A stretch of DNA of 63,954 nt, filler included, from Thraustochytrium aureum (taxonomy: Eukaryota), in NCBI GenBank assembly GCA_012862495.1. It is 7 parts of 6 records of this genome, joined end to end, with 100 filler letters (N's around TTAATTAATTAA, not from the genome) between each part and the next. Parts side by side here need not be neighbours in the genome. Positions count along the whole stretch, not along the records: positions 19,339 to 48,809 come from BLSG01000087.1; 6 more parts are not named here. One strand, 5' to 3'. Shown one piece after another: positions 19,224-48,909 of this stretch. Within the stretch, counting starts at the first letter, position 1. Each line of letters opens with the position of its first letter. The notes beneath the pieces are model-generated. The model ran no database searches. It worked only from the letters and a program-made list of their open reading frames with translations, and had not been told where the DNA came from. The translations under genes were made by a program, and so were the position numbers.

Positions 19224-19282
19224 TTTGCTGGCGCAGACNNNNNNNNNNNNNNNNNNNNNNNNNNNNNNNNNNNNNNNNNNNN

Positions 19283-19294
19283 TTAATTAATTAA
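19283..19294. other. Artificial contig spacer (TTAATTAATTAA, stops in six frames, flanked by Ns)
   Basis: The identical N-flanked 12-mer recurs at 48854, 55173, 59164, 60518 and 62872. Confidence 0.97.
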
Positions 19295-19338
19295 NNNNNN
19301 NNNNNNNNNNNNNNNNNNNNNNNNNNNNNNNNNNNNNN

Positions 19339-28783: not shown

Positions 28784-30193
28784 CTATGATGCGTTCTTTT
28801 TACGACGCACTGCCGCAACGACACCTTCCACGAGATCCGGTTCGGCATCAAAGAATATTTGGCCGTCCAGCGCGAGGAGCTCAGGTAGCAATTTTGCCTC
28901 ATCCGCGCTTAGCCCTGGTTTTCCAAGGCGTTCTTCAACCTCAGACGCAGACGCCAGAAAGTGGACGATGACGGTGCCTTCAGTCTTTGCCTCACGTTCC
29001 AAGGCTACGCGGGCCTCGTTAATGCAATACTTCGAGTCAAAAAAGTCGACCAGGTTGACGATAATCAGGATGACGTGCGCTTCTTCGAGTGCGCGCTTCA
29101 TCTCTTTCGTAGGGTTGCCGGACACCGGAAGGTTTTTGGCGTCCAAGAACGGCTCAAGGCCTTTATTTTGGAGTATTTCCCGGAAACTGTTTGCGTCGAA
29201 CTTGTTGGAGCCGCGATGCACGATGAACACGTCGTAGTGGCGATTAACAGGAGCAGGACGGGGTGAAACCATGCCGCTCGTGGAATCTCCGCCGTCGTCG
29301 CTTGCACCAGTGGACCCTAGCCCACGTCCGGCTCTCTTCTTCTTACGCACCACATAAACGATTGGGCAAACGAAAACAGCGAGGACAAAGACACTACCGA
29401 CGACAATTCCAGCAATGGCACCAGGACCAATCGACGCTGCGGAGGCGTCGCTCTCGTCCCCGCGCAGTCCTGACGTCTCCGTCGGCGTGCTTGATGGCGC
29501 CCCAGTCGCTTGGTCTGCCGTAGGAGCGGTGCTGGGCGTTTCGGACAAGGCGGCGGTTGGCGAAGTGCTTGGCGAGGATGTTGGGGAGACGCTGGGCCGA
29601 GCGCTCGGTGAATTGGTCGGTTGCCGCGTCGGGCCACTCGTTGGGGCTTTGGTCGGGCCACGAGTCGGGGACTTGGACGGCCCGCGAGTCGGGCCTCTCG
29701 TTGGGGCTTCGGACGGCTCGGGCGTGGGCCGCGGGACCTGAATCGGCCCGCAATCCGTGCAGTCCGTGCCAAGTTTGAGCGGCTGCTGGGTGGGGTATCC
29801 GCTGCTATCGTCACATAGCTGTCCTGCGCCTGGAGGATCTGGGCACCCCAGGGCTCCGCTGTCTTCAACTCGCGTTAAGCCGTGCTCCGAGTATGTATCA
29901 AAGCACAGCTCAACAGTGGCTTCCGTTGCGCTCGGGCAAGTCCCGCACGTCACGGGACACTGGCGCCTAACGCGCACCCCGAAGTTGGAGTTCTCACCGC
30001 AGTATTGCGCGAGCTCCAAGCAGCTGTTGCCACCGCCTTCCCAATCCGGGCAATCGCTGCCAATATGGACAGTCGGCCTGCCGTTGTCACGAATGTGGTC
30101 TTCCCAACCGGGGCACCACTGCCCGACAGCATTCTGCTGCGCGAGCATCAGCGCCATTATCAGCAACAGCAGTTTCGTTCTCATCATCTTCAT
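28784..30193 (-). CDS. Receptor 1: signal peptide - ShK-like + Cys-rich ectodomain (type A) - PST stalk - TM - canonical TIR
   Basis: MKMMRTKLLLLIMALMLAQQNAVG signal; CLELAQYC...RRQCPVTCGTC; GTDCTDCG; PT/PS repeats; TM AIAGIVVGSVFVLAVFVCPIVYVV followed by RKKKR; TIR YDVFIVHRG...PFLD...VILII...FFDSKYCINE. Confidence 0.85.
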   Translation of the reverse strand: MKMMRTKLLLLIMALMLAQQNAVGQWCPGWEDHIRDNGRPTVHIGSDCPDWEGGGNSCLELAQYCGENSNFGVRVRRQCPVTCGTCPSATEATVELCFDTYSEHGLTRVEDSGALGCPDPPGAGQLCDDSSGYPTQQPLKLGTDCTDCGPIQVPRPTPEPSEAPTRGPTRGPSKSPTRGPTKAPTSGPTRQPTNSPSARPSVSPTSSPSTSPTAALSETPSTAPTADQATGAPSSTPTETSGLRGDESDASAASIGPGAIAGIVVGSVFVLAVFVCPIVYVVRKKKRAGRGLGSTGASDDGGDSTSGMVSPRPAPVNRHYDVFIVHRGSNKFDANSFREILQNKGLEPFLDAKNLPVSGNPTKEMKRALEEAHVILIIVNLVDFFDSKYCINEARVALEREAKTEGTVIVHFLASASEVEERLGKPGLSADEAKLLPELLALDGQIFFDAEPDLVEGVVAAVRRKKNAS

Positions 30194-30729
30194 CGCTGAG
30201 GTCCACCGCCCCGCCCCTGTCTTGGCCCGCGCCAGCTGATCAGGGTTTGCGTCGTCGGCAAGCTGCACTGGCNNNNNNNNNNNNNNNNNNNNNNNNNNNN
30301 NNNNNNNNNNNNNNNNNNNNNNNNNNNNNNNNNNNNNNNNNNNNNNNNNNNNNNNNNNNNNNNNNNNNNNNNNNNNNNNNNNNNNNNNNNNNNNNNNNNN
30401 NNNNNNNNNNNNNNNNNNNNNNNNNNNNNNNNNNNNNNNNNNNNNNNNNNNNNNNNNNNNNNNNNNNNNNNNNNNNNNNNNNNNNNNNNNNNNNNNNNNN
30501 NNNNNNNNNNNNNNNNNNNNNNNNNNNNNNNNNNNNNNNNNNNNNNNNNNNNNNNNNNNNNNNNNNNNNNNNNNNNNNNNNNNNNNNNNNNNNNNNNNNN
30601 NNNNNNNNNNNNNNNNNNNNNNNNNNNNNNNNNNNNNNNNNNNNNNNNNNNNNNNNNNNNNNNNNNNNNNNNNNNNNNNNNNNNNNNNNNNNNNNNNNNN
30701 NNNNNNNNNNNNNNNNNNNNNNNNNNNNN

Positions 30730-32890
30730 GTTTGAAACGCGCTTTGACGCCTCCTATCCCTGCTCCGACTCCCCCAAAACAAAAGACAGCGACGTCACCG
30801 GCAGCAACACTACCAAAGCCAAATGCTGAGGCACCTCCCACGCCGGCAGCGCCAAGGAGTGCTGGAGCGGCGAATCCAATCAAAGCACCAACAAGGATCC
30901 CTCCCGTCAAACGTGGGAACCTGCTCTGCCAGGCGCCTGGCGGCGTGATTGGGATTTTCCCTCGGCCAACGCCGTCGTCGCTATTGACCTTTGAAAGCCA
31001 CGTTTTGAAGGACTCGGTCTCGGCGAGAGCTTTGTGCTCGAGCGCCCACAGTTTCTCGAGCTCTTGCGGGAGGCTGGTGTCGACGGTGGAGGCCAAGCTC
31101 TTGGCTTGGACGCGCCAGGCACCTACCTCGCAGAGGACATGGAGCACCTTCCGTGGAAACTCGCGCTTGGCCGCATCCCCGCTGAAGAGCTTTCGAATTG
31201 TGTCCTTTATCCAACTCTTGAGCTCACTTTCTTGCGCCTTGCCACTCTCGGCTCTGACGTTGCTCAGCACCTCGTCAGCTTCGTCAAACCAAACCGGGAC
31301 CCCTGGGCGCTCAACGTTCGACCTCCACTCGGAGCCCTCCGCAGATACCCGCCAAGCTTTCACGCTTCTCAGGTCTTCAACTTTGTGCTCCTCCTGAGCG
31401 CGTTTCCATACGCACTCCAGAGACTTGCTCGGTGGGGTGAGCGCTGCGAGCGCAACGCTGGCGATGAGTTTGTTCAACATGCGCAACGCCGCGTCGCAGT
31501 TTGCGTCTGATGATTCAGCAGACGTAAAGGTGTTGTCCGGACCCCAATAGCCCCTCTTCGCGGCCAGGTCCTGGATTTCAGCGTCAAGGTCGCTGATGAC
31601 GCTCTCCCAAGCTCTAGCGACTTGGTTCGAGTACTTGCCGCCTTCTGATAGCTCCACGAGTTGGAAAAGCTCCTCCGACTCCGCGCGAAGTGCCTGGAGG
31701 CCCGCAAGCAGGGTGACCTCGCTTGGGCTTTCAACGCGAATGCTCCGCCAACGGTCGTCTGGCGTTTTTGGAAGGGAACCGTCGAGGAGGCCACGAAAGG
31801 TTGTCATTAGGACCGCAAACCGTGCCCGAGCCATACCAAAAACGAGCTCTTTCCAGAAGTCCTTGACACCTGCCAGCTCAGCAGTCTTTGCCGCAATGTC
31901 CTTGTGAGCCGCATTGGCTCTAGCTCGCTCAGCATTTCCGTCATCCCGGAAACCTAAAAATGACCATGGCCCAGGTACGCGCAGTCCCCACGTACCCTCA
32001 GACGGCTGTCTGTTGCCAGTGTAGTCCCTGAGGACGGTGAGCTGGTTGAGGAAGTGTGTCTGCTCGCCGCCCTCGAGGTCTGGGAGGAGAGAGTAGAACT
32101 TACGAATCAGCTCGCAGTTGGCGAGGTCGCAACCCCTGCATTGGCTGTTCAGGGCGTCCACTCCGCGAGTGAAGTAGAGCGACACCTTTCTCGATTCGAA
32201 GTGTTTGGAGAGGTACTCCTTGTTGTAGATTGTCTTTGCGTTGCTACTGACTTTCTCGCGCTCCCTCTGCTCCACTGCATCCATCTTGTTGATGAACACA
32301 GCGACAGACGCCCGCGTGCCAGAGCGGCGCACAAGCTCCGCCAATTCCTCGAACTTTGTTGAACCGACGTCGGTCGTCGGAATCACCATGGCGATCAACG
32401 TGGCCTTCTTCAGTTCTTCGCAAATGACGCCTTCTCGATGCTCGCGGCCATTCGCCTCGTCTGCGCCTGGAAGGTCCACAATCTCGACACCGCCAAGACG
32501 GAGGTCCAGGTAATCCTTCATTGGTTTCATGTTGGCTTCAATTACAAGCCGCGGGATCGTCGTCCTCCTGTTTTGATGTTCAATCCAGCTTCGTGGGCCG
32601 GCAGCAGGATCGACCTGCGTTCCTTGGGTTTCGCTTGGCCCTTGGCTTTCGATTGGCCAAACACGAAGCGTCGGCTCGCCTTCGACATGGCCCCTGAAAT
32701 GTCCAGCCTCCATACTTTCCACGTGCCGCACTAGTGTTACGGTGGCGGTTTCGATCATTGCGGCGCTTGGCAACAGGTACGCTCCGATAATCGCGTTGAG
32801 GATCGTACTCTTGCCGGCGTTCTGTGTGCCCAACGCAGCGATGCGGAGCACGGAGGCGTCCGCGTCGTTGTTGAAATCCAGTCCAACCAT
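30730..32890 (-). CDS. Dynamin-like GTPase of bacterial DLP/mitofusin type with C-terminal Gly-rich hydrophobic segment; 3' end in gap
   Basis: G1 IAALGTQNAGKSTILNAIIG, LLPS..ETAT (G2), IVDLPG (G3) and INKMD (G4), then a helical region and GGILVGALIGFAAPALLGAAGVGG. Confidence 0.8.
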
Positions 32891-33934
32891 CCTCGGTAGT
32901 GCCTGCGCGCCCCCGTGCTGAGACTCAGCAAAGCCTGGCCTGTACTAGTAGGTATCTGCTTCGCGATTTGCGTGCAGCAAGCCTCGCTCGCGATGCGGGA
33001 CTGCCGACCGCGCTGGGATGGCATCCTGGTTAAACTAGNNNNNNNNNNNNNNNNNNNNNNNNNNNNNNNNNNNNNNNNNNNNNNNNNNNNNNNNNNNNNN
33101 NNNNNNNNNNNNNNNNNNNNNNNNNNNNNNNNNNNNNNNNNNNNNNNNNNNNNNNNNNNNNNNNNNNNNNNNNNNNNNNNNNNNNNNNNNNNNNNNNNNN
33201 NNNNNNNNNNNNNNNNNNNNNNNNNNNNNNNNNNNNNNNNNNNNNNNNNNNNNNNNNNNNNNNNNNNNNNNNNNNNNNNNNNNNNNNNNNNNNNNNNNNN
33301 NNNNNNNNNNNNNNNNNNNNNNNNNNNNNNNNNNNNNNNNNNNNNNNNNNNNNNNNNNNNNNNNNNNNNNNNNNNNNNNNNNNNNNNNNNNNNNNNNNNN
33401 NNNNNNNNNNNNNNNNNNNNNNNNNNNNNNNNNNNNNNNNNNNNNNNNNNNNNNNNNNNNNNNNNNNNNNNNNNNNNNNNNNNNNNNNNNNNNNNNNNNN
33501 NNNNNNNNNNNNNNNNNNNNNNNNNNNNNNNNNNNNNNNNNNNNNNNNNNNNNNNNNNNNNNNNNNNNNNNNNNNNNNNNNNNNNNNNNNNNNNNNNNNN
33601 NNNNNNNNNNNNNNNNNNNNNNNNNNNNNNNNNNNNNNNNNNNNNNNNNNNNNNNNNNNNNNNNNNNNNNNNNNNNNNNNNNNNNNNNNNNNNNNNNNNN
33701 NNNNNNNNNNNNNNNNNNNNNNNNNNNNNNNNNNNNNNNNNNNNNNNNNNNNNNNNNNNNNNNNNNNNNNNNNNNNNNNNNNNNNNNNNNNNNNNNNNNN
33801 NNNNNNNNNNNNNNNNNNNNNNNNNNNNNNNNNNNNNNNNNNNNNNNNNNNNNNNNNNNNNNNNNNNNNNNNNNNNNNNNNNNNNNNNNNNNNNNNNNNN
33901 NNNNNNNNNNNNNNNNNNNNNNNNNNNNNNNNNN

Positions 33935-35450
33935 CCTCGTACGGCATTACATCGCCAACCCGAACGCGGTGATCCTTGTGGTGATCCCGATAACCGACGA
34001 CCTGCAGACGTCGGAGGCGATCCAGCTGGCGCGCGAGTACGACAGGCCGGGCGTGCGCACCCTTGGCGTCCTGACCAAGCCAGACCACGTTTTGGCAGAC
34101 TCGTCGCGCAAGGAGTTCATGGCGAGGGCACTAAAATCGGGCGGGGGCCCGGACACTCCACTCAAGCTCGGATACATCGCTGTTCGCACGCGCAAAGGAG
34201 ACGAGCACGGCCCGCTCTCGCAAGTCCTCGAGGCTGAGCGCACGCTTTTCAGCTCGGACCCTGTCTTCGGCCAGCTGGACAGGTCGCTATGGGGCATTGA
34301 GACGCTGCGATCGCGCGTACTCTCGATCCAATCCAGGTTTCTCCGCGCGTTTCAAAAGGGCTTTGCGTCCTCGGTCCAGGCTCGAAAGGGTGAGCTGGAG
34401 GCAGAGCTTGCTGAGCTAGGAGGTTTGGAGCCCGGGGAGGAGCACGACGTACTACTTGGGTTTTTCCGACGCCTGAACGCCGTCTTTGACAGGGTTACGA
34501 TCAGAAGGGAGAGTGGGAACATGCCGAACGCGGCGCTTCTTGGGATGCACTTCGACGAGGCTGCCTTGGAGTTTGGGCGGAACATCACCGAACGGATTTG
34601 CCCCACGCCAGGGTTTTTCAAGAACGACGAGGCGACGCTTGCAGACGTGCGGGCTCTGATCCAAGACCTTGGCTCCAGTGGCGAGTTGGACAGCCTCGGG
34701 GTGTTCAACAATGTCGTCCGGAGGCACATCGCGGAGCCCGCCAAGCAAGTCGTGGAAGAGTTTGTGAGGCAGGCGAACTTCTTTGTGCAACAAGCGCTAG
34801 GTGCGATTCTCGGAATGGACGACCTCCGCGCGCTGGCCCGCAAGTGCCCGAAGATCTGCTCCAACCTGCTCGAGTCAATCAGGGCCAAGGAAGCCGAGCT
34901 CTGCCAGAGCACGCTCGCGTTTGTGAACGACCTCATCGAGGCTCAAGCAGATTACGCGCGGTTTGGGAGAGACTTGCCCTTGGGTAGCGGCACTGAGATC
35001 GTCGGGCTCATCCAAGGCCTTGGGCTGGATCAGGAGACCCAACTCGTCAGCGCTGTCAGCGCTGTTTGCGGCCAGCCTGGAGCAGTCGTCTTTCGTGCGT
35101 TCATGAACCGCGTTGGGCGCGCTTCACCCGCGAGTTCCCCCATGGGAGACCGCGGGGCCGCGTGGATTTGCCACAAGCTTCAGTGCCGGGCAGAACGTGC
35201 GGTCGCCGCATTCGAAGAAATTATCCCTCGTATAGTCTGGCGCAAGCTCGTCAAAGGGTACGAGGCCGTCTTCGAAGGCCTCCAATCAGATCTCGCCAAA
35301 GACTCTGATCTGCGCAAGCTTTGGACCGAAGAAAGTGGCACTGTTGTCGAGGAACGCAGAGCTCTTGAGGATCGCATTAGTAGGCTGGGTCGTAGCTTGG
35401 AAAAGCTGGAGCAAGTCGAGTTGCGCAGCGCAATGCTCAGCTTGGTTTGA
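33935..35450 (+). CDS. Mx-like dynamin-family GTPase (N-terminal part lost in N gap)
   Basis: ILVVIP...TSEAIQLAREYD...RTLGVLTKPD (G4 with Mx-type TKPD), LKLGYIAVRTR, WGIETLRSR, helical middle domain and GED-like end (EERRALEDRISRL). No PH or proline-rich domain is visible. Confidence 0.8.
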
Positions 35451-35619
35451 GAAAAAAAAGGCTCTTGCCAATGGCGATAAAACTGATTCGTTCGGTCGAC
35501 TCGATGTGGTCGATGCCCTTCCACAGCTCGTTGGTGGGCTACGCTACGTGAGGCGGAAGGCTCGACCTGAACGAGCCGAACGAAGCAGCACTGTCGAACC
35601 TTCTGAAGGCAGCCCAAGC

Positions 35620-36244
35620 CGGCAGTCTAGCTGCGCTACTAAGGCTGCTCGCTGAGAGGACCAGCCCCATGGGGACTGGAACGCTGACTGTGAGGCCACT
35701 CATGGGCGCCTCGATGCCAAATAAGAAATGAAAACTTACCCCGGCCTCAATTAGATCGCCAAGGTTTCTCGCCAAGAACGTCGCCGCCTCCCAACCTGTC
35801 ACATTCTTAGTCAGCCAGTTTGCCGACTCAGTCAACTCCAGCTCACGTAGTCCCTCGCTGGTGGCGCTGAAGGGGGCGAGAAACACAGCCAACGCTCTCG
35901 GCGGAGCGATCGCGCAGTTCTTCCATAGCATTGCGAAACCCGTGGTCCGTAAGCTCCCTTGCCGAAGACAAGAAGACGACAACGCGTTTTGGCCTTTTTG
36001 GAGCGCAACGACTCAAACGCCGAGCCAGCGACCTCAAGCTCGCGCAACCATGTGGTTTTGATGCCCCGCTTGTCAAGCCCTTTGCTGACTTTGTTAACCA
36101 GGCGGGCGTGCTGCTGCGTTGCAAGAAAGACACCCGGCAAACCTCATTGTGCGGGTCTCACAGGCACGTCTGCTCGGCGTTGCAGGTCGCCTCGCTCTGC
36201 AGCTGGGCGCTCGCGCAAAACGCCCTTGCCCCGGCCTCGTCCAT
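35620..36244 (-). pseudogene. Receptor remnant 2: start of type B ectodomain joined directly to a frameshifted VTGWEA TIR-like domain
   Basis: From ATG 36244 reads MDEAGARAFCASAQLQSEATCNAEQTCL*DP (TGA where paralogs have TGG). It continues across frames as FLATQQHARLV, VVVFLSSARELTDHGFRNAMEELR and ANWLTKNVTGWEA. Stalk and TM are absent. The 3' boundary is approximate. Confidence 0.7.
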
Positions 36245-37506
36245 TCTTGCCAGCAAGGCACTTTCCTGGAGGCACCGGCAGCAGGCCTGCCGCGACACCA
36301 AGCAAGACTCGGCTCCGCGTCCTCGCCAGGATCTGCTGGATGCTGGCTGGGGCAGTTCCGTTTGCTGCGCGAGGGTCGATACGTACAGGTTCGCGCCTCA
36401 CGTCCAGCCTCGCGGCTCTTGGAGATGGATCCCTGACCAATTCAATGATCTTGAAAGCTCAGGCTGGTCTTCGAGTGGCGCACGAGCTCGAGCCGCGCCT
36501 TGGCATCCGACTCGGAGTACTTTCGCACCAATGACCAATGCACGTTTGCTCGCACGGCTCTCGGCTCGGCCTTCGGAGTCGGGCGGGCGTGGAGCCGGCT
36601 GTCGCGACAACTCGGCGAGTCCTCCTTGCAGCCCAGCCAACCTGAGCGGGCCATGAGCGCAGGAAGGTCAGCAGCATTTGCGACGAGCGCAGGGTGTGCG
36701 GCCAATTCTTGCGCCGGCGTGAGCATGCGCGTCAAGTCTCCGGTCGAGGCCACGAGGAGGAGGCGGCCCAGTTCATTTCTCGCGTGGAGCCAGAATTCAG
36801 AGGGAAGAGCACCTCCTCGAGTACCCACCGACCGACCTACCGACCTTTGCGTTCAAGTTTGCGTTTGGATCGCTGCGAACGCGTTTCCGTGGAGCACGAG
36901 ATCTCATCGGAGCATCTCTTCAACGCGGAGTGCAACGCCACACGCAGCGCGTCGAGTGGCGCCTCTCGGACCATCATGAGAGCAGTTGCGTTTCGGTTTT
37001 AGCCACTGCTGCTCTGCTGGTCGCTTGCACAACCAAGACTGGTCGGACTGGTGCCACAGCGGTGCCGGCGCTGATCGAGGACGGGCATGGGCTGACCAGT
37101 TCAATGCGCCCCTAGTGAGAGCACGAGTCCCGAATCGAACGCTTCGTGCTGCGCTCGACGAAGGCCGAGAGCTGCTTTTTTTGCACCACGAAAAGGTTGC
37201 GCTCTTGTGCTCTGGCCGTCTTTGTCACCGTTCTCGCGTACGACGGCGTGCAAGGCAATGCCTACTCTACAGTGAGCGGGAATCGGTAACGGCCTTCGTA
37301 GCCGACACACTGATCTGCTTGCTTGCCTTCGAGCCGCTCAAAAGCGCTCTGTGGCGTTTGCTGAAACAATGGATAACCTGGACGAGTTCGCACAGGACGC
37401 CGAGGCGGGCTCCGAGGGCTGCACCGACCGCGGCTGCGGTCAAGCCCGGTACGGGGTCCTTCTCGTAAACGGGCCGTTTCGCCAAGCCAGCAATGATCCG
37501 ATCCAT

Positions 37507-38992
37507 TTACGCCTCATTCGCCCGCTTGTAGACATGATGGATGTGCGGGAACCTCCCAGTTGCAAAGTACGATTCCACGCCGGCCAGGACCAAGCGGTCC
37601 AGGTTGTATACCTTGAAGGGCTCTGCCTCCCAGCCCGTCACGTCCTGGAAAAGCCAGCTCGCCGCGTCGCTGTTCTCGGACTGTTTCAAGTCCTCCTTGA
37701 GCGCGTGCAGCGAGCTCAGAAAAACCGGCAAGACCTTCAACGGCACCACTTGGAAGCTGTCCGCATGGCGGTCGCGCAGCTCGCATAGCGCGGAGCGCAG
37801 CGCTGGGTCATCGACAAGCTCTTGCGAAGAGGAGAGCAACACCACCACAACGCATGCCTTATCGATGCACGACGGTCGGACGGCGCGGCTGGCTTGGTTT
37901 GCGGCGGGAGGCTCGATCACGCAATCGATGCCATTTGCAAGCAAGCCGTCCCGAACCGCTCGAGCCGGGCGAAAGTGATGTTTGTGGCACAGAATGACGA
38001 CCGGGCCGGTTGGCGCGATGGAGAGCTGTCCCAGTGGGCCGTCAAAGTCGCTCTTTGTTTGCCTTGCGCGACGACGACGCGAAAACCAGGCCACAAAACT
38101 TGCCACAAGCAAAAGCAAGCCCACTCCAGTCCCCACTCCAGCGTATACTCCCGCGTCGACTTGCTCCTGGGTGTCTTTTCCTGCAGCCGCAGGTTCGAGG
38201 GCGGATGGGCCCGAGGTTGCAGGCGCGCCGAGCGGTGCTGAAGTTGGACTAGTCTCACTGGCAGAGCTGTTGGTCGGCGCTGGGCTGGGCGGGTAAATGG
38301 GCTTGCGGCTGGGCGCTTGGCNNNNNNNNNNNNNNNNNNNNNNNNNNNNNNNNNNNNNNNNNNNNNNNNNNNNNNNNNNNNNNNNNNNNNNNNNNNNNNN
38401 NNNNNNNNNNNNNNNNNNNNNNNNNNNNNNNNNNNNNNNNNNNNNNNNNNNNNNNNNNNNNNNNNNNNNNNNNNNNNNNNNNNNNNNNNNNNNNNNNNNN
38501 NNNNNNNNNNNNNNNNNNNNNNNNNNNNNNNNNNNNNNNNNNNNNNNNNNNNNNNNNNNNNNNNNNNNNNNNNNNNNNNNNNNNNNNNNNNNNNNNNNNN
38601 NNNNNNNNNNNNNNNNNNNNNNNNNNNNNNNNNNNNNNNNNNNNNNNNNNNNNNNNNNNNNNNNNNNNNNNNNNNNNNNNNNNNNNNNNNNNNNNNNNNN
38701 NNNNNNNNNNNNNNNNNNNNNNNNNNNNNNNNNNNNNNNNNNNNNNNNNNNNNNNNNNNNNNNNNNNNNNNNNNNNNNNNNNNNNNNNNNNNNNNNNNNN
38801 NNNNNNNNNNNNNNNNNNNNNNNNNNNNNNNNNNNNNNNNNNNNNNNNNNNNNNNNNNNNNNNNNNNNNNNNNNNNNNNNNNNNNNNNNNNNNNNNNNNN
38901 NNNNNNNNNNNNNNNNNNNNNNNNNNNNNNNNNNNNNNNNNNNNNNNNNNNNNNNNNNNNNNNNNNNNNNNNNNNNNNNNNNNNNNNNNCAT
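37507..38992 (-). CDS. Receptor 3: (ectodomain in N gap) - PST stalk - TM - VTGWEA TIR-like domain
   Basis: Stalk at 38200-38320; TM VGLLLLVASFVAWF followed by SRRRR; PVVILCH...VVVVLLSS...ALCELR...VLPVFL...WLFQDVTGWEA. The putative ATG is at the gap edge (38992). Confidence 0.7.
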
Positions 38993-39811: not shown

Positions 39812-41275
39812 TCATTTGCGTTTGTACACATCCTTCAAGGGCGGAATGCGCTCTGTGGATAAGAATTGTTCCACTCCAATGTAGATGAGCTGGTCTAGGC
39901 CATCCGTCACGTACTGCGCTGCCTCCCATCCCGTCACGTTATTCCAAAGCCAATCCACGGACTCGGCATGCGACGACAAAGTAGACCGGTAGTCGCTCTT
40001 CAAGCCTACAAGCGGCGTCATGTATACCACGAGTACAGTAACACACGAATCACGCTCTCCTTCCGCATGCAGATCTCGTAGCTCGCGGATGGCATCTTGT
40101 AGCTTTGGAGAACTGTCATACTCTCTCGCGGAGGGAAAAATGACGACCGCAAATTCGGCTTCCTGTAAGCGATGCGCAGTCATCTGGTCGTCTGAAGCAG
40201 TCTCGGGATCGACAGGACGCACGGAATCCAAAGGGGCCACAATCTCGCAGGTAAACCGCTTGCCTTTGTCCTGCAAGAAGCGGTCTTGGAGCGCCTTGGC
40301 CAGGGCGCTTTTTCCCCGATGGCAAATAACGACGACTCGCAGGGCATGCTTCGGGCTGGGCAGCCAGCATGCTGCACGAGCAAGNNNNNNNNNNNNNNNN
40401 NNNNNNNNNNNNNNNNNNNNNNNNNNNNNNNNNNNNNNNNNNNNNNNNNNNNNNNNNNNNNNNNNNNNNNNNNNNNNNNNNNNNNNNNNNNNNNNNNNNN
40501 NNNNNNNNNNNNNNNNNNNNNNNNNNNNNNNNNNNNNNNNNNNNNNNNNNNNNNNNNNNNNNNNNNNNNNNNNNNNNNNNNNNNNNNNNNNNNNNNNNNN
40601 NNNNNNNNNNNNNNNNNNNNNNNNNNNNNNNTTGTTGGACGCTGGAATTGGCGATCTTGTCGGCGGTGGGCTCGGAGTTCGGCTTGGGGCAGGACTCGGG
40701 CCTGCGCTAGGGGACTTGCTTGGGCCTGCGCTAGGGGACTTGCTTGGGCCTGGGCTAGGCGATTTGCTCGGGCCTGGGCTAGGTGACTTGCTCGGCCGGC
40801 CTGACGGAGTCTCCGTTGGGGACTTGGTCGGCGGCGTCGGTCGCGGTACGGAGAGTGCAGGGGATCCGCAGTCAGTGCAGTCTGTCCCCAGAGAGCAAGA
40901 GCTTGAACTCGAACCCAGCCTGCCATCATCGCAGAATGGCAAGACGGACGCACATCCAAACGCACCGCCATCCTCGACACGAAAGCAACTATCAAAGCAC
41001 AGGTCAGCAGTAGGGTTTGTCGAGCTCGGGCATGTGCCACACGTGACAGGGCACTGCCGCCGAACGCGTTCGCCCCTGTTGGTTTGCTCACCGCAGTACC
41101 CAGCCAGCCCTGCACACGACACGCGAAAGGCCACAGCGCACGGCACGGCTGGGTCTACGAACGGATTAGGGCTATCCCCAACGTGACCCTCCCATCCGGG
41201 GCACCACTGCGCGGCCGCCGCTAAGCAGGCATGCGCGGCGATCACCGCGGCCAGGCCGGCCTTCCGCTGCCACAT
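39812..41275 (-). CDS. Receptor 4: signal - ShK-like type A ectodomain - stalk - (TM in gap) - VTGWEA TIR-like domain
   Basis: MWQRKAGLAAVIAAHACLAAAA|QWCPGWE; RRQCPVTCGTC; GTDCTDCG; PSKSPS repeats; RVVVICHRG...AVVIFPS...AIRELR...VLVVY...WLWNNVTGWEA. Confidence 0.8.
   Translation of the reverse strand: MWQRKAGLAAVIAAHACLAAAAQWCPGWEGHVGDSPNPFVDPAVPCAVAFRVSCAGLAGYCGEQTNRGERVRRQCPVTCGTCPSSTNPTADLCFDSCFRVEDGGAFGCASVLPFCDDGRLGSSSSSCSLGTDCTDCGSPALSVPRPTPPTKSPTETPSGRPSKSPSPGPSKSPSPGPSKSPSAGPSKSPSAGPSPAPSRTPSPPPTRSPIPASNXXXXXXXXXXXXXXXXXXXXXXXXXXXXXXXXXXXXXXXXXXXXXXXXXXXXXXXXXXXXXXXXXXXXXXXXXXXXXXXXXXXLARAACWLPSPKHALRVVVICHRGKSALAKALQDRFLQDKGKRFTCEIVAPLDSVRPVDPETASDDQMTAHRLQEAEFAVVIFPSAREYDSSPKLQDAIRELRDLHAEGERDSCVTVLVVYMTPLVGLKSDYRSTLSSHAESVDWLWNNVTGWEAAQYVTDGLDQLIYIGVEQFLSTERIPPLKDVYKRK
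40690..40795 (-). repeat. Coding 24-bp tandem repeat (PSKSPS[P/A]G x4) in receptor stalk
   Basis: Repeated gggcctg(c/g)gctagg(g/c/t)ga(c/t)ttgct units. Confidence 0.8.
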
Positions 41276-41924
41276 CCCGATAGTGCTCTGCGTTGCATCA
41301 ACATACAGCGAGCTGGCAAGTGGCGAAGAGTATTGACCGAGCGCGTTGCGCTCTCATGGCCGCACCGCTCTGGATGCCGGGCAGGTCCCGGCAGAGGCGC
41401 AGCAGCAAAACAGCTGCCGAGTTAGCCAGCGGCACGCACGCCAGTATGCGTCGAGGCGGCAAGGCGCCTTGCTCTTCTTTTTTCCCGTTTCTCGCTCTTG
41501 ACCGTGGAGTGCACGGCTCGGGGTTTTGTTTCGTTTCGGGCTTGCCAAGTGCACGATACTCAGCCCTCGCATCGAATCCGAGCTCAAGAGTCGTCGCCTT
41601 GGTGAATTGATGCCCGACTGGCGCGAAACACGGACGGCGCGCTATCGATGGCGGCCGGTTCGGTCGAGGTGTGACCGAGGTTGACCCTGGCTTGAGAGAG
41701 TCCATCCAGTGCCACCACTGACTTCATCCATCATCCCTTCATACTACGCTCTTGGCAGAGGTGACCGACATTGTCAACGTGGTTGATGCACTCCTCGATC
41801 TCTCCGGCAGGCCGAGCGAGCACAGGCGGCTCCAGCAGCTCCAGGACGCTTGAGCGCGCTCGTGTTGCGCAGACCCGAGACGGATTCGGTACTCGCGGAC
41901 CAGCCGCAGCGCGCCGGCAGGTAG

Positions 41925-43463
41925 ATGGCGCTGCGACGGGGCAAGCGGGGGGTGGTGGCAGCTGCGGCGGTGGCCACGCTGCGCTCTGGCTTGGCAGCCG
42001 CGCTGTGGTGCCCCGGATGGGAAGGCTATATTGAAGACGCGCCGTTCGCTACGACAATTGTCATCGATAGGCCTTGTCCAGCATGGCATTACGAATGGCA
42101 GGGGGAACTCGTGACTGCTGCAACGTGCTCAGAGCTCGTTAGTTACTGCAGCGAGCAGACCCCCCTCGGGGAGCGCGTTCGGCGTCAGTGCCCCGTTTCG
42201 TGTGGGTCCTGCCCGAGTGCGACGAGCTCGGTCGCCGACCTTTGCTTTGACACTTGCACAACTCGCGTTGAGGACGACGGCGCAGTGGGCTGCTCCGATG
42301 TCGCGCCGGTAGGGCTATGCGACGATGGTAGGGCGGGCTCGATTTCCACGGCCTGCCCTCGAGGGACCGACTGCTCCGACTGTGGGGTTGCTCTCTCCGT
42401 ACCGCGGCCGACGCCGCCGACCAGCTTTCCCACAGCGCATCCCTCAACCAAAGCACCGACGAAAAGCCCGTCACGTCGGCCGACCAAGTCGCCCTCGAGC
42501 GGCCCGTCACGTCACCCTTCCAAGGCCCCGACAGCAGGCCCGACGCGTCAGCCGAGCAGGTCGCCGAGCAACTCGCCTAGTGCTCACCCGAGCGTTTCAA
42601 CAGGCGGAACTTCCAGCGGAGCTCCAACTCGGGCGCCGAGCGCCGCACCGAGCGCAGCCCCGAGCGCTGCCCCGAGCGCTGCCCCGAGCGCCGCGCTCGC
42701 GTCGGGACAAGCAAGCAGGGATCCAACATCGGCGCCGACGCTTGGCCCGACGGCTTTGCGAATCAGCGAAGACGACCCCTCGGAAAGTCTCGGCGCTGGT
42801 GCGATTGTTGGGATCCTCCTTGGGCTTGCTTTGCTCGCTGCCATCTTTGCTTTTGTGCGGCGGAAGAGATATCCTTCAATTATCGCGGGCGAGAAATCGC
42901 AGCAGACTTCCTATGATGTGTTCATCGTGCACCGCGGTGATAACAAGTTCGACGCCAATATAGTCCGAGAAAAGCTGGAAATGCTCGAACGCCTCAGGCC
43001 ATTCTTGGACGCCAAGAGCCTGAAAGTCGGTGGCGACCCCACAGCGGAAATGCAACGCACCCTTAGCGAAGCACCGGTCATTTTGATCCTGATCAGCCTG
43101 ATCAGCTTTTTCGACTCCAAGTATTGCGTCCAGGAAGCCCGGACAGCCCTGGAACGTGAAGCAGAGGTCAAAGGCACAGTCATCGTTTACTTCTTGGGAA
43201 GTCAGGAAGAAGTCGAGGAGCACCTCAGAAAACCAGACCTCAGCAAGGACGAGCGAGAGTTGCTTCCCAAGCTCTTTGCACTCGATTCACAGAGGCTCTT
43301 CGAGGGTGGCGACGATTCCTATAGCTCTCTTTTGAAGCTCGTCGCTGATGCGGTGAAGCGCAATAAGAAGCAAAGGGCTGTCCCGAGCGAAATGCCCTTG
43401 GCCGCGACGGGCGCCGCGAGCGAACAAGGTCAATCTAGCCCGGTAGCGAGCTCTACAACCTGA
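41925..43463 (+). CDS. Receptor 5: signal - ShK-like type A ectodomain - stalk - TM - canonical TIR (complete, uninterrupted 512-aa ORF)
   Basis: LWCPGWE; RRQCPVSCGSC; GTDCSDCG; PSAA repeats; TM AIVGILLGLALLAAIFAFV followed by RRKR; TIR YDVFIVHRG...PFLD...FFDSKYCVQE. Confidence 0.9.
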   Translation: MALRRGKRGVVAAAAVATLRSGLAAALWCPGWEGYIEDAPFATTIVIDRPCPAWHYEWQGELVTAATCSELVSYCSEQTPLGERVRRQCPVSCGSCPSATSSVADLCFDTCTTRVEDDGAVGCSDVAPVGLCDDGRAGSISTACPRGTDCSDCGVALSVPRPTPPTSFPTAHPSTKAPTKSPSRRPTKSPSSGPSRHPSKAPTAGPTRQPSRSPSNSPSAHPSVSTGGTSSGAPTRAPSAAPSAAPSAAPSAAPSAALASGQASRDPTSAPTLGPTALRISEDDPSESLGAGAIVGILLGLALLAAIFAFVRRKRYPSIIAGEKSQQTSYDVFIVHRGDNKFDANIVREKLEMLERLRPFLDAKSLKVGGDPTAEMQRTLSEAPVILILISLISFFDSKYCVQEARTALEREAEVKGTVIVYFLGSQEEVEEHLRKPDLSKDERELLPKLFALDSQRLFEGGDDSYSSLLKLVADAVKRNKKQRAVPSEMPLAATGAASEQGQSSPVASSTT

Positions 43464-44961
43464 CGCAACTCGATGAAGACTGTTTTCTAGAATGCTGTGC
43501 GCGACCGCCGGGAGACCATGGAACGCGACGAGGCGCAGAGGCAAGAGCGTCAATAAGTCCGCGGCGTGACCAGACTTTTTAAACAGGACCCACGGCGGTT
43601 AAGAAGTGCTCTTGACCATCGGGCTCCTCCCATTCAAAATGCGAGAGCGGGAACCTGGTCAGTGGATAGGCGNNNNNNNNNNNNNNNNNNNNNNNNNNNN
43701 NNNNNNNNNNNNNNNNNNNNNNNNNNNNNNNNNNNNNNNNNNNNNNNNNNNNNNNNNNNNNNNNNNNNNNNNNNNNNNNNNNNNNNNNNNNNNNNNNNNN
43801 NNNNNNNNNNNNNNNNNNNNNNNNNNNNNNNNNNNNNNNNNNNNNNNNNNNNNNNNNNNNNNNTTTCCCTGCTCTGCTCGGCTTGCGAATGCTGTACCCG
43901 AAAGTGCCGGGCGGCGATTCCGCCCTCGAGTCTGCCGGCTGTTGTTCACGAAACTCGGCTGCTTTTGGCATTTTGAACGTCGGCGTACGTGCCGACCTGA
44001 TGCGATGCAAGCGAAACTCGTGGAGCGTCCCTGCTCGCTTGCGTCAAGAGGCTTCACCTAAAGCATCACGCTGACCACCCCTATTTCTCTCCATGCTTGC
44101 TTTTTAAATTGTGCTGTCCGGACAGCGTGCAAGTGCAGGCGAACGTATTCCCTAGCGACGGCTTTGGCGGCTCCCATCCCCACGTAGAGTTCGCATCTGA
44201 GTAGAGTACAACTGGCTGGTCCAACCAGCAGGGTCGTTGAACCAATCGCATGATCATGTTCGCTGGTGATTCTCGCCAGCGCCCCCTTCATTCTTGGCCA
44301 ACACCGCGACGCGAACAACTTGCGACCACGCAGGCACATGCAAGCTCGACTTCGGCGACACACGCCACGGGCAGGGCGGCCGCGACGACAGCATCGAGCT
44401 CGATGCTGCCAGAGGATGGGCATGTGGAGATGAGTGAGATCACAGGATCATCTGGGCATATTTTCCGACAGATCGACACTGTACCGACGCGCACGTCGAG
44501 AAAAAGCGCGCTCGAGCCATTCCTTGCTGTTCACAAGACGAGGTGGGCACCAACTAAACCGAGGTGTGTCGGTCGTTCGTCCGGGTGCATGGCGCGTGCC
44601 AGACGCGTTTGCTGTAGCCAGCAAAGGTAGGTACAACGTCGCCCGCAAGGCTCAACAGGGCCTCATGGATCTGCGCTTCTCGTGGCCCCGCGCGCGCTCA
44701 AGTGTCGCGCTCAAGTCTCATCGCTGGATGACAGAATCGCATCGCATTTTTCAACTGGATCGAGACGCATGCTGGCCGGCCGACGAACGGACTGCGTGCG
44801 GGTGCACGCAGTGCCCACCGGGTGTGGTAGAGCCGAATCTCGCAGAACTCCGTGGGGCAAGGCTCGCCGAGCTTGCGTAGCAGAGTCGAGACTCGCAGCA
44901 CTCCGCGGGCGCAAGGTTCGACCACAGGCGCCAAGCCGGCGTTGCAGACGGTAGACGGGGG

Positions 44962-46353
44962 ATGGATAAGGCCGAGGCCGAAGCGTTCTGCGGCGAGTTT
45001 CTGGGGCAGACCAGCTGCAATGCGGAGCAGACGTGCTTGTGGAATCCCATGGCCGGGAGCTGCATGGTCGCCTTGACGTTCAACTTTTGCCAAGCGATGA
45101 ACGGGGACCCGGTCGACTGCGGCTTTTGGTCGCAATGCGAGTTCAAGACGGTGAACGGCATTCCAAACACTTGCACCGCCGCGCAGCGGCCGGCGGGATG
45201 GAATTGCGAGCAACCTGATTACAACCAAAATCGTTGCCACTGCGGATGCGGGATCTGGGACCCGGATTGCGACAAGTCTCCCCCGGACGACGCGAACGAT
45301 GCGAAAGCCACGTGCGGGCCGTGGGCTTCCCAAATTCCAGAGATCGGCAAGTACTGCGACTACTCGTCAAACACCTGCGCGACTCTGAGCCCAACCGCGT
45401 TACCGACCAGAACGCCAACGAGCCACCCGAAGCAGGGCACCGAGCAAAGCCCCGAGCAAAGCTCCAACACGAACACCGACCGAGGCGCCGAGCACTCGGC
45501 CCAGCGCAACCCCGAGCGCAACCCCGAGCGCATCGCCAAGTGCTATGGTAGCAACCCAAGCACCGAGCCACGCGCCGAGCTTGTCCCCACATCGGCAGCC
45601 GACGGGCAGTGTAACGGGCGGCAGCCCAACGACCCGGGCGCCGTCCGGTTTGCTTCCGACCAGTTCGCCAACGCCCTTCCTTGCTGCTGCAGCCCTCGCT
45701 GACGAAGGCGAGAGTGTCGCAGTCATTGTCGGGGCGACTGCGGCCGGTATTCTTTGCTTGCTTGGCGTTCTCGTCTTTTGGCTGTGCCGCAGGAGATCGT
45801 CAGGGCCAGCTTCCGGCCCTCGGGGGCCGGTCGTCATCCTTTGCCACAGGCAGCACGGCAACATAGCTCGAAATATCCTTGCGGGTCTGTGCGACAAGGG
45901 CTTCGAGTGCGCGATTGAGCCTCCGCTGAAGCCCGAGGATGCCGTCGCCGGCCAGCCTTCCAGCCTGGAGAAAGCCCAGCTCGTTGTCGTTCTCCTCGCA
46001 TCCGTGAAAGAGCTAGACGATGATCCCGCGCTCGCCAACGCCCTTCGCGCGTTGCGCGGTCGTCACGCGGAGGCCAGAGGCCAGGGTCTCGTTGTCTTTC
46101 CAGTGCATTTGAGCTCGCTCGGCGCGATCAAGACCGGCTCTGGAGAGTCTGCATGTTTGGACGTTCTGAACTGGCTTACCCACGAGGTGACCGGGTGGGA
46201 GGCAGAGCCGTACAAGGCAGGCAGCCTGGACCTCCTCGTCATCCATGGCGTGGAATCTTACTTTGCAACAAGCACGATCCCCCAATCAACGCGGCCTTCC
46301 ACCACGTGGAGCCCCCACGCCTCGAGAGCAATCCGCCGAGCGCAAGGCAATGA
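44962..46353 (+). CDS. Receptor 6: type B Cys-rich ectodomain - stalk - TM - VTGWEA TIR-like domain; frameshifts near 45430 and 46283
   Basis: CNAEQTCLWNP, RPAGWNC, CHCGCGIWDPDC; stalk; TM VAVIVGATAAGILCLLGVLVFWL followed by CRRR; PVVILCH...WLTHEVTGWEA. The start and signal peptide are uncertain. Confidence 0.75.
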
Positions 46354-46783
46354 TCATGATGATGGATGATGCGGCTGATGATGAACGGGAAAAGGACGAT
46401 GATTCATTGATGAACGAAAAAGCACTCGGCAAGTCCGCAAACAAGGTGTGTACCCCTCTGCTCACAAATAGGCCCAGGCCTGCCTTGCACACTCTGCCTA
46501 CCAGCCAGCCAGCCAGCCCCACGAAAAACGTGGTGAGAGTAAGCGAACAAGTGCGAGTGGGTACAGGGCGTCAAGTTGAACCGGATGGCGCACCGGCAGG
46601 AGACCGGCAGAGCTGCTGCCCGATCACAAGCTGCGGCCGAGCAGCGAGCAGCTTGATCACTCAACAGCAGACCTGAAACGAAATCAGGAGCGGAAGGCCG
46701 CGAGAGCCCGACGGCGACAGGGCGCTTCATGCACCAACCACGACGCACGAAGCTTTACGAGAACGGACTAGCGTTGCTTGGGG

Positions 46784-48138
46784 ATGGGCTTCGGGTACGA
46801 CGACGCCGTGCTGCTCTGCTCGCCGCTCCAAAGCCAAAGCACTTGTAATGCGGAGGATAGCTGCCTCTGGGATCCGGGCGATGGCACATGTAGAGCGTCC
46901 GACTGGGTGAGGTTTTGCTCCTACGCGAACACGGTGGCCGACCCTGAAACGGAATGCAAGAAAAGCTTTCACTGCCAGTACACGCGAGTCGGTGGCCAAG
47001 ATGGCGTCTGTACCACAGCGCCGCGGCCTGCTGGCTGGGTCTGCGAGGCGCCGGCTTTCTTCAATGGTGGATGCGACTGCGGGTGCGGGGTGCGTGACCC
47101 TGACTGTTTTACTGGCGGGAGTCCATGTATTCATGCGGTCCGTGGGACCGCAATGTCGACGTCGAACTCGTTTGCGACTACGAGACGAACTCATGCGTGT
47201 CGAAAGCTCCAACCCCCGGTCCGTCTAGATCTCCGACCCGCGGACCGTCGTCAAGGCCGACCTCGGTGCCCAGCGCCTCGCCAACAACTACGCCGACGAG
47301 CGCGCCTAGCCACACTCCGAGCAAGACGCCAAGTGAGGCCCCCGCTGGGTCGACGCTGAGCCCGTCTAGTTTGTCGACGATCATGCCCAGCTCGGCGCCG
47401 AGCTTGGAACGCACTTTGGCGCCGAGCTTGGAACCCACTTTGGCGCCGAGTTTGGCTCCTTCTGCTCAGCCCAAGGTCTTTACTGGAGCCCAGGCAGGGG
47501 GGGAGCCAGCGCAGCTGAGTAGCGTTGGACTGGCGGCTTTGGGAGGGCTCGTCGCTTTGTTCGTCGTGGGGGCGCTTGTTGTACTCGGATGGTGGCGCAA
47601 GCGCAAAGGCCCCGTTCCCGTGGCGCACCCCTTGTATTTGATAGAGCCAACAGAGCCAGTCGCGATCCTGGCCACGGCCCAGCATGCGAGACTGGCTCGC
47701 GCAATACAGGGCTCCTTGAGTCAGCGGAGCGTGACGAGTCAGATTGAGCCTTCGAGAGAGAGAGGCGGCGTATCCGCCATCGAGCGCGCACAGCTTGCGC
47801 TGGTACTGTTTTCGTCTGCGCGCGAGCTAGAGGATGAGGGTTTCCGCGCGATGATGCAAGAGCTGCGAGCCCGGGCCGACGATGAGACCTTGCGCATTTT
47901 CCCAGTCTATCTCACTGCGTTCGAGCCGCTCGAAACTGCCGTTCGCGCTTCGGAGCACGCGGAAGCAGCGTCCTGGTTGTTTCGCGGCGTTACTGGGTGG
48001 GAGGCAGATCTCTTCGCGACGCCCAGCCTCAGCGACATGGTGGCCAAAGCCGTGGAGACGTTTTTTGCGTGCGGAGTGATTCCCGACATCAAAGATACCT
48101 ACGTGCTTTTCCACCGGGTTGAAGAAGATCCAGTCTAG
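46784..48138 (+). CDS. Receptor 7: type B Cys-rich ectodomain - stalk - TM - VTGWEA TIR-like domain; frameshift near 47120
   Basis: CNAEDSCLWDP, RPAGWVC, CDCGCGVRDPDC; APSLEPTL repeats; TM LAALGGLVALFVVGALVVLGWW followed by RKRK; PVAILAT...MMQELR...IFPVYL...WLFRGVTGWEA. Confidence 0.78.
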
Positions 48139-48684
48139 TAGAGCTCCAGGGCACCCCCGAGTACTCCGTACCTCGCAGTACAGATCACAGGCTCCCACTC
48201 TCGACGATGTAGCTGTTGACGATCATGATGGGGCCCATGGTCATCATCATCACCGGTGCCTCGTTCTCGCACTGGCAGGCAAACGATTTTGACACTTGAC
48301 TTTCGTTCGCTGTTCGCCGATTCCGCGACCGCCTTGAATGACGACGGCCGGCAGCCGTCGGTCGTGCCAATCGACGGACGCCGTCCGACTCGAACCATCG
48401 TGCCGAAGCGCACCTGAACTCGATTTCGGATCCGCGAGGCTTGGTTCAAGAGTCATGGACAAAGGCACACTCCTGCGCAACTCCAGCGTGCTTTTTTTAN
48501 CCCGCGCCGATGCAAGTACTTGCACCACCATCATGGTACTAGTAGAGTACTCGCATGTTGGCAGCCCGGGCAGAGCACGAACAGCAGCACGAACAGCAGC
48601 ACGAACAGCAGCTCGCGTTTACGAGCCGCGGTTGTGGCGGCACTGAACGGAACATCGCTTTGGGACTTGGCGCTGTTGGCAAGA

Positions 48685-48809
48685 ATGGACGAGGCCGGGG
48701 CAACGGGCGTTTTGCGCGAGCGCCCAGCTGCAGAGCGAGGCCACCTGCAACGCCGAGCAAACGTGCCTCTGGGACCCCGCATGATGAGGTTTGCCGGCTG
48801 TCGGCATGG
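48685..48809 (+). CDS. Receptor 8: 5' fragment of a type B ectodomain gene, cut off by the scaffold end
   Basis: Near-identical (inverted) to 36130-36255. Reads MDEAGAT-AFCASAQLQSEATCNAEQTCLWDP-HDEVCR after removing two homopolymer insertions. Confidence 0.6.
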
Positions 48810-48853
48810 NNNNNNNNNNNNNNNNNNNNNNNNNNNNNNNNNNNNNNNNNNNN

Positions 48854-48865
48854 TTAATTAATTAA
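48854..48865. other. Artificial contig spacer
   Basis: N-flanked TTAATTAATTAA. Confidence 0.97.
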
Positions 48866-48909
48866 NNNNNNNNNNNNNNNNNNNNNNNNNNNNNNNNNNN
48901 NNNNNNNNN

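Follow-up and report, generated by a model that had tools for sequence, protein, structure and literature searches.

Toll-like receptors (TLRs) are defined by the combination of leucine-rich repeats (LRRs), a transmembrane helix and a TIR domain, and are confined to choanozoans (PMC6040629; here and throughout, what is said of a paper cited by PMC number or DOI refers to the accessible part of its text). In Gephyrocapsa huxleyi, virus infection induces genes for head-transmembrane-TIR proteins, for example cogent1101_i1 (PMC12489294). Protist TIR domains can be active NADases, and the survey reporting this mentions thraustochytrid TIRs once, in a clade with an algal TIR that makes 3'cADPR (10.64898/2026.04.20.719644); its supplements may include thraustochytrid TIRs similar to those described below. 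Mx-like genes occur in stramenopiles with fast turnover, the clade being defined by phylogeny (PMC11789081), and in bacteria pairs of LeoA-like dynamins defend against jumbo phages (10.1101/2022.05.11.491447). Persistent mirusviruses and nucleocytoviruses occur in thraustochytrids (PMC12606086, 10.64898/2026.07.28.741200), and the accessible text of these two papers mentions neither TIR domains nor dynamin. Here we describe a cluster of genes from Thraustochytrium aureum (GenBank assembly GCA_012862495.1) that encode membrane receptors with TIR-fold tails, together with two GTPases of the dynamin family. The window, that is the whole stretch of 63,954 nucleotides analysed, is a series of gapped scaffolds with N-TTAATTAATTAA-N spacers between them; the cluster lies at 28784-48809, on a scaffold that occupies 19339-48809 (BLSG01000087.1, GC content about 60-63%) and is flanked by spacers at 19239-19338 and 48810-48909.

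Lists of open reading frames (ORFs), six-frame reading and tblastn together identify six receptor genes, three broken pieces and two dynamin-family GTPase genes in the 20 kb. The reading towards which we lean, with a confidence only a little above even and as far as the sequence of one genome fragment allows, is that this is a fast-evolving array of innate-immune receptors with TIR-fold tails, accompanied by two likely antiviral, mutually unrelated dynamin-family GTPases. The layout is that of a defence island, with TIR receptors, an Mx/Drp-type gene and a gene for a bacterial-type dynamin-like protein (DLP) side by side. The order is R1, DLP, Mx/Drp-type, R36, R37, R39, R40, R42, R45, R47 and R48, the receptor paralogues being on both strands. 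Seven TIR-fold tails are present, those of the six receptors R1, R37, R40, R42, R45 and R47 and that of the remnant R36. A first-pass annotation had counted at least eight TIR receptors, a number that has to be lowered to six, since R36 lacks stalk and transmembrane helix, and R39 and R48 show only a head. Its description of paralogous genes for Cys-rich head, stalk, transmembrane helix and TIR in both orientations, with two dynamin-family genes among them, is borne out by the ORFs, tblastn and Pfam. Receptor modules were not found by tblastn elsewhere in the 64 kb window. As had also been stated, the 20 kb contain no recognised housekeeping gene, and the cluster extends to the end of the scaffold. 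The cluster does lie on one gapped scaffold between two spacers, but the left spacer is not its boundary, ordinary genes (a P-type ATPase and a questin-oxidase-like gene) being present on the same scaffold to the left of 28.6 kb. The genes in the window appear to be intron-poor.

The receptors share one layout, namely a Cys-rich head of about 140 residues (with 12-16 Cys in the three heads counted), a Pro/Thr/Ser stalk, one hydrophobic helix and a tail of 150-175 residues. There are two types of head and two types of tail. R1 (28784-30193, minus strand, 469 residues) and R42 (41925-43463, plus strand, 512 residues) are complete, each with a type-A head, PT stalk, transmembrane helix and type-A TIR tail, the latter containing Glu393 in R1 and Glu404 in R42. 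R40 (39812-41275, minus strand, about 490 residues) stands head-to-head with R42, their start codons being 650 bases apart, and is a chimera of a type-A head and a type-B tail, which implies that heads and tails have been shuffled. R45 (44962-46369, plus strand) and R47 (46784-48138, plus strand) have a type-B Cys-rich head, stalk, transmembrane helix and type-B tail; in the window R45 is frameshifted at 45429 and, within the tail, at 46283, and R47 at 47113. R37 (37507-38321, minus strand) has stalk, transmembrane helix and type-B tail, its 5' part falling in the gap 38322-38989. The remaining three are broken. In R36 (35539-36330, minus strand, located by tblastn in three frames and by six-frame reading) the start of a type-B head is fused out of frame to a frameshifted type-B tail. 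R39 (39250-39700, minus strand), found by reading the six frames by eye, is a type-B head in decay, interrupted by frameshifts and stops, in which no transmembrane helix or TIR was seen; it was missed by tblastn at E 1e-3 and is hence less certain. R48 (48620-48809, plus strand) is a type-B head of which only the start is present, disrupted by frameshifts and stop codons, no TIR being visible before the scaffold ends, and is 92% identical to R36 over 129 bases, which marks a recent duplicate. Such broken copies, a chimera, frameshifts and a 92% identical duplicate fit birth-and-death evolution.

The type-A heads of R1, R40 and R42 are 53-60% identical (60% for the R40/R42 pair) and combine a weakly ShK-like part with a CDDG...GTDCxDCG module. 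All three keep the CxxTCGxC end of ShK (PF01549), a domain named in the first-pass annotation, and score 14.5-15.7 bits, below the Pfam cut-off of 20.9. The type-B head, found in R45 and R47 (42% identical) and in the remnants, has no family match in Pfam and the other profile libraries, and no usable match in the Atlas. The stalks match Pfam PT in R1 (29.9 bits) and R42 (48.3 bits). Hydropathy gives a single transmembrane helix in R1, R37, R42, R45 and R47, its position in R40 falling in a gap, and basic residues directly follow every visible helix, which places the TIR tail inside the cell. A signal-like N-terminus is recognisable by eye in R1, R40 and R42. No Pfam LRR matches at E≤1, and the LxxLxLxxNxL pattern has 0 matches in 7 reading frames; the receptors are therefore not TLRs, and the earlier label "Toll-like" holds for the topology of head, single helix and inner TIR but not for LRRs.

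Like the TLRs of animals and choanoflagellates and the IL-1 receptors, these proteins have an outer head, one transmembrane helix and a cytoplasmic TIR domain, and in R1, R40 and R42 an N-terminus that resembles the signal peptide of those receptors; unlike the TLRs, with their LRRs, and the IL-1 receptors, with their Ig domains, they have a Pro/Thr stalk topped by a small Cys module. The likeness is likely to be convergent, and the array would represent a third independent route to a head-transmembrane-TIR receptor. The G. huxleyi protein cogent1101_i1 is likewise a single-pass protist protein with a non-LRR outer region and an inner, RPS4-like TIR domain that has the Glu (PMC12489294), the likeness being one of architecture and not of sequence comparison. 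The G. huxleyi proteins differ in their much longer outer region, and the accessible part of that paper reports no cluster, dynamin neighbours or subfamily without the Glu.

The two tail types differ in how readily they are recognised. The type-A tail of R1 scores 40.1 bits with Pfam TIR_2 (cut-off 28) and 27.4 with TIR (cut-off 21.3), and that of R42 35.4 and 21.3; the two are 61% identical. Both have a Glu at the catalytic position, in the motifs YCVQE and YCINE that align with WCLDE of the plant TIR domain 3jrn. They also show weak matches to ThsB/ThcB4 (E 3e-5 to 9e-4), which together with the catalytic Glu recall the Thoeris system of bacteria. The Thoeris sensors are soluble, unlike the membrane-bound receptors here, and a SLOG, Macro or SIR2 effector is unrecognised in the cluster.

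The type-B tail (R37, R40, R45, R47 and the remnant R36) is 34-52% identical to that of R37 and has an invariant WLxxxVTGWEA motif that is specific to it. None of the four tails of R37, R40, R45 and R47 matches any TIR profile at E≤10, so that two of the six receptors pass the Pfam cut-off and the other four are TIR proteins by predicted fold only. The tail of R37, the one member of the four that was modelled, was predicted from a four-sequence alignment with a pLDDT (predicted local distance difference test) of 81.7 and has the TIR-type order of strands and helices. In Foldseek, ranks 1-10 for this model are all plant TIR domains, with E 1.2e-4 and a TM-score of about 0.6 to L6/RPS4. Against 48,161 chains in VIA-align, ranks 1-12 contain TIR domains, with 4c6t_B at Z 14.7 (root-mean-square deviation 3.1 over 144 residues), and the best non-TIR chain, of flavodoxin type, reaches Z 10.1. 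By predicted fold, then, tail B is a TIR domain, and on this point the first-pass annotation is upheld. At the position of the usual Glu it has Ser, Ala, Asn, Asp or Met, judged both by MAFFT and by counting along the predicted helix. As its sequence reads, tail B is likely to be a dead enzyme; an invariant Glu70 lies nearby, with another Glu one turn later in three of four, and could substitute.

A profile of tail B gave a single match among 1.84 billion protein representatives, which was rejected on reading as a repetitive sequence, and only chance matches among PDB sequences. As far as these libraries go, tail B would therefore be an unrecorded, lineage-restricted TIR subfamily. Since it is invisible to Pfam, counts of protist TIR domains are underestimates. 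Its best structural match is the plant pair RPS4/RRS1 (PDB 4c6t), and here too an active TIR may be paired with one lacking the Glu, both from head-to-head genes. RPS4 and RRS1 differ from the receptors here in being soluble TIR-NB-LRR (nucleotide-binding LRR) proteins. Complex prediction with the TIR tails of R42 and R37 (not the head-to-head partner R40), in which alignments were unused, gave 0.30 against a mark of 0.34.

The two GTPases stand head-to-head and point apart across one gap. The DLP gene (30730-32890, minus strand, at least 720 residues, its C-terminus entering a gap) matches Dynamin_N with 58.4 bits and has intact G1-G4 motifs (G1 GTQNAGKS, G3 DLPG, G4 NKMD) of the NKxD type, a helical middle and a hydrophobic C-terminal segment. 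Among PDB entries it matches the bacterial BDLP 2j68 best (E 4.6e-4); it also matches CrfC (E 9.8e-10, 37 bits against a family cut-off of 1146) and PADLOC LeoA (E 4.2e-8, over a short part). Its sequence thus bears a weak resemblance to bacterial dynamin-like proteins. The single-sequence model had a pLDDT of 34.7 and was unusable. A fusion of DLP with R1 across the gap 30273-30729, for which the frame matches, was set aside as less probable, R1 beginning with a signal-like peptide of its own.

The Mx/Drp-type gene (33935-35450, plus strand) comprises the end of the GTPase domain, with G4 TKPD (TKxD type), a middle domain and a GED, its N-terminus being in the gap 33039-33934. It matches Dynamin_M (40.8 bits, cut-off 28.5) and Dynamin_N (30.2 bits). 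The GED match is weak (E 0.11) and aligns with the GED of MxA in the PDB comparison, and a PH domain is absent. Comparison with PDB sequences gave near-tied scores for a red-algal dynamin (56.7 bits), MxA (52.0) and Vps1 (49.5). A housekeeping Drp1 or Vps1 orthologue is expected to score far higher against solved dynamins, and the gene is therefore taken to be a divergent member. In the Atlas, the clusters nearest to it are small ones of plant, fungal and chordate dynamins, which provide a lead only. In having GTPase, middle and GED without PH, and in being divergent, the gene is like the Mx clade of animal Mx, fungal MxF and plant DRP4 (PMC11789081), and its sequence is compatible with membership of that clade; the same architecture is equally that of Drp1/Vps1. 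The earlier term "Mx-like" is therefore apt for the architecture, with the clade not settled by the near-tied scores.

The best BLASTP match between the two GTPases has E 1.7, over a GTPase overlap that is short owing to the gap. They are not tandem copies, which means that two separate dynamin lineages lie inside the TIR array. The DLP is like BDLP1, CrfC, LeoA and the two-gene anti-phage system in being of the NKxD type and in forming one of two adjacent dynamins beside defence-type genes. It differs in that the bacterial type is confined to a single gene of the pair, in the head-to-head rather than operon arrangement, in the C-terminal position of the hydrophobic segment, and in scores far below the BDLP, CrfC and LeoA family cut-offs where these are given. 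That two dynamin types of known antiviral pedigree occur in the array hints that protist defence genes cluster as they do in bacteria.

Four sequencing runs (X1-X4, of which X2-X4 come from one study) contain at least half of the words of 40640-48490; in two further runs, X5 and X6, the share is 0.09. As a control we used a 17 kb stretch on another scaffold of the window, divided into 30 bins. Since these four runs contain both the cluster and this second scaffold, the window is read as coming from a single organism. X1 covers 30 of these 30 bins, whereas the coverage by X2, X3 and X4 is patchy (8, 13 and 12), about 10 kb being nearly blank; X2-X4 are therefore taken as probably RNA, with X1 behaving like DNA. 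In the cluster, X2, X3 and X4 cover 28, 26 and 27 of 30 bins, and their contigs cover R1, DLP, the Mx/Drp-type gene, R40, R42, R45 and R47 at least partly. It is worth adding that R1, DLP and the Mx/Drp-type gene lay outside the stretch by which the runs were chosen. The region 36804-38804 (R37) is almost uncovered in X2-X4, which says nothing on silence or absence.

The runs also differ from the window in informative ways. The R45 frameshifts at 45429 and 46283 are absent from X2, X3 and X4, and X1 has the form of the window, from which both intact and broken alleles appear to exist. At 47113, in R47, X2, X3 and X4 all have one extra base, X1 being uninformative here because its contig ends at 47115. 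X1 may be the source of the window, and would then not be independent. It differs from the window at 205 of 17,531 bases in the cluster and at 38 of 15,938 in the control, or 11.7 against 2.4 per kb, a 4.9-fold excess that rests on one control scaffold. X1 contigs that are only 90-95% alike make up 7 of 41 in the cluster and 2 of 31 in the control. By the contigs of X1-X4, the locus is variable between samples and not conserved, as the first-pass reading requires.

Other differences are as follows. In-frame length variants occur at 42873 (18 bases more in R42, in X2-X4) and at 47412 (24 bases fewer in the R47 stalk, in X2), and such variants adjoin the membrane helix or sit in the stalk. In DLP, 16 listed substitutions within the 183 bases of 31184-31366 are common to X1, X2 and X4, many of them altering residues 527-587; the block points either to an allele that split off deeply or to a DLP gene present in a second copy. 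Between R42 and R45, the 1.4 kb of 43557-44989 contain no convincing ORF, yet are covered by X2-X4, with many differences and indels in X4; they may belong to R45 as an upstream exon, form a long untranslated leader or be the remains of one more gene.

If the array is indeed an immune one, a mechanism can be proposed. The disulphide-rich heads, mounted on mucin-like Pro/Thr stalks, would bind the surface of a virus, a bacterium or another cell, and ligand binding would cluster the receptors and so bring their cytoplasmic tails together. The canonical tails of R1 and R42 could then cleave NAD+ to an ADPR-type signal, or drain NAD+, while the divergent tails without the usual Glu may serve as non-catalytic subunits, either as partners or for tuning, and so make a wider range of heads available. 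Incoming virus parts in the cytosol would be the target of the Mx/Drp-type GTPase, and a membrane the site of action of the DLP. We suggest that the GTPases are independent defences kept in one variable region and do not read the TIR signal directly; shared head-to-head promoters might switch them on together. TIRs and GTPases are tied by position alone, and the wiring of a "sensor-plus-effector" locus, as the first-pass annotation had it, is unproven. Each ingredient has precedent; the combination and the TIR-B family are without precedent within the literature and libraries searched. That literature, in which subscription papers are mostly uncovered, describes neither an array of TIR receptors in a thraustochytrid nor a clustering of TIR and dynamin genes in a protist. 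Virus sensing and resistance in protists are largely open questions, for which the locus supplies testable candidates. Thraustochytrids include genetically tractable species.

A number of observations weigh against an immune array. No SLOG, Macro or SIR2 domain, as a nucleotide-sensing effector, was recognised among the ORFs of the cluster as far as it can be read, up to the scaffold end at 48809 and outside three gaps. R45 and R47 have no clear signal peptide in the window, as judged by eye. The dynamin scores, near-tied between MxA, Vps1 and the red-algal protein, do not single out Mx for the Mx/Drp-type gene. For tail B, hhalign pairs the Glu of an ELR motif with the catalytic Glu, with a probability of 2.3% and an ambiguous register. 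Expression may be constitutive, X2-X4 being one study whose conditions are not recorded. The excess of differences in X1 could partly come from contigs of unseen paralogues placed at 90% identity, and amino-acid changes show no clear excess (20 of 31 codons in the cluster against 17 of 33 in the control, among the 34 and 33 listed coding-region variants, of several hundred, that were usable). Finally, the GTDCxDCG module of the head matched 220 metagenome stretches, of which 79 loci were kept; relatives of TIR-A or TIR-B, sought with our own TIR profiles, were absent from the ORFs of these 79, and a Pfam TIR was found in 0 of 43 non-redundant segments downstream of the module. The domains found beside it are FG-GAP, VWA, EF-hand and lectin-type. 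The module is thus common in unrelated surface proteins and the head gives no immune signature; since the loci that carry it are without TIR, the receptors would have been built locally from common surface modules.

Two further observations concern this module. In the fuller form C-x3-C...CDDGG...C..GTDC.DCG it is frequent and often repeated in marine and freshwater metagenome contigs, with up to 14 copies per protein; it has no Pfam family of its own in our scans and is LNR-like by eye. In one locus (L047:341-1192) it is followed by a hydrophobic segment and by a weak match to the PARP catalytic domain (E 3e-5, below cut-off), which is possibly, as far as its sequence suggests, another NAD-using receptor.

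A stronger form of the immune reading, which we put forward only tentatively, is an island of bacterial style, in which catalytic TIRs would be paired with TIRs of the new family lacking the Glu as sensor/executor couples, and the Mx-like and bacterial-type dynamins co-regulated with them against the giant viruses and mirusviruses that infect thraustochytrids. If it were true, protists too would be open to guilt by association, the approach by which most defence systems of bacteria were found.

A different explanation is that the array senses something other than pathogens, such as a substrate, a neighbour, or self and non-self at the cell surface or ectoplasmic net, with the dynamins as fast-evolving membrane remodellers that have gathered there. 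We consider this rather improbable, although a good deal can be said for it. The head module occurs in the unrelated surface proteins just described, and Pro/Thr stalks are common in protist surface proteins: a homologue search with the whole R42 protein gave 36 matches, mostly to the PT-repeat stalk. The usual catalytic Glu is missing in four of the six tails, and transcripts seem to be present without known challenge. TIR domains and non-housekeeping dynamins are nonetheless both linked to defence in the papers cited, and their occurrence together, with pseudogenes and null alleles, suits an arms race better; allorecognition, for its part, would still be a conflict function.

More tightly integrated is a scheme in which R40 (TIR-B) and R42 (TIR-A) form a sensor/executor pair whose signal directly activates the pair of Mx/Drp-type and DLP GTPases. 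RPS4/RRS1 is such a head-to-head sensor/executor pair in plants, and the cluster has two head-to-head pairs, R40/R42 and DLP/Mx-type, the heads of the former being alike (type A, 60% identical) and their tails unlike, while TIR-B finds its closest solved structure in one chain of the RPS4-RRS1 TIR heterodimer. Neither GTPase has a domain known to bind ADPR-type signals, however, and head-to-head gene orientation is common in compact genomes as a matter of general knowledge. Nor was a second genome with the same arrangement found, in searches that are weak for distant relatives. A search with the two TIR-A tails among longer proteins gave none from 7997 candidates, which is weak evidence. In searches able to detect close relatives only, there were no related loci for TIR-B in metagenomes or for TIR-A or the Mx/Drp-type gene in viral contigs, no relatives of DLP in prokaryote genomes, viral contigs or plasmids, and no type-B head in prokaryote genomes. 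We regard direct coupling of this kind as distinctly unlikely, and keep to the array of immune receptors with independent GTPases.

Least tenable, and in our view highly improbable, is a gene graveyard or scaffolding artefact, in which a low-coverage assembly would have strung mostly dead duplicates together over N gaps: it has in its favour that the region contains six N gaps (191-896 bases) and a lone N, the frameshifts in R45 and R47, the three remnants, and the fact that none of the contigs listed covers the stretch from end to end or bridges any of the gaps 30273-30729, 33039-33934 and 38322-38989, but other gaps are bridged and joints linked by contigs, intact alleles appear to exist, and the GTPase motifs and catalytic Glu are kept. 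Thus, the gap 40385-40631 in R40 is bridged by contigs of X2, X3 and X4 with 256 letters, the frame being kept, and the gap 43673-43863 is closed by all four runs. Single contigs link the Mx/Drp-type gene to R36 (34264-36509) and R45 to R47 (45186-47266), and a contig of X1 joins R36 to R37 (36623-37837). The linkage assumed in the first-pass annotation is therefore supported at several joints and not at the three unbridged gaps. One further X1 contig joins 38321 (R37) to sequence resembling the R45 head, and loose ends of the Mx/Drp-type gene in X1, X2 and X4 run on into the gap 33039-33934.

Among other genes in the window, the questin-oxidase-like gene (27290-28540, plus strand, PF14027, 113 bits) adjoins the cluster and stands tail-to-tail with R1; the questin oxidase family is best known from fungi and bacteria. 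The same scaffold has an ORF of 423 residues at 24955-26223 (plus strand) with no Pfam match. A gene at 12656-16222 (plus strand) has a periplasmic-binding-protein-like domain (PF12849) before the seven-helix domain of family-3 G-protein-coupled receptors (PF00003), with a frameshift near 14790; X1 has indels in it at 14692 and 14835, and it may encode a single receptor, the frameshifts being due to the assembly or to the allele. On the scaffold after that of the cluster, a UTP18-like WD40 protein, the one gene by which the window was judged likely to be thraustochytrid, is 61% identical to that of the thraustochytrid Mucochytrium quahogii, its nearest named relative, with JGI matches of up to 65% and 41-45% identity to other eukaryotes.

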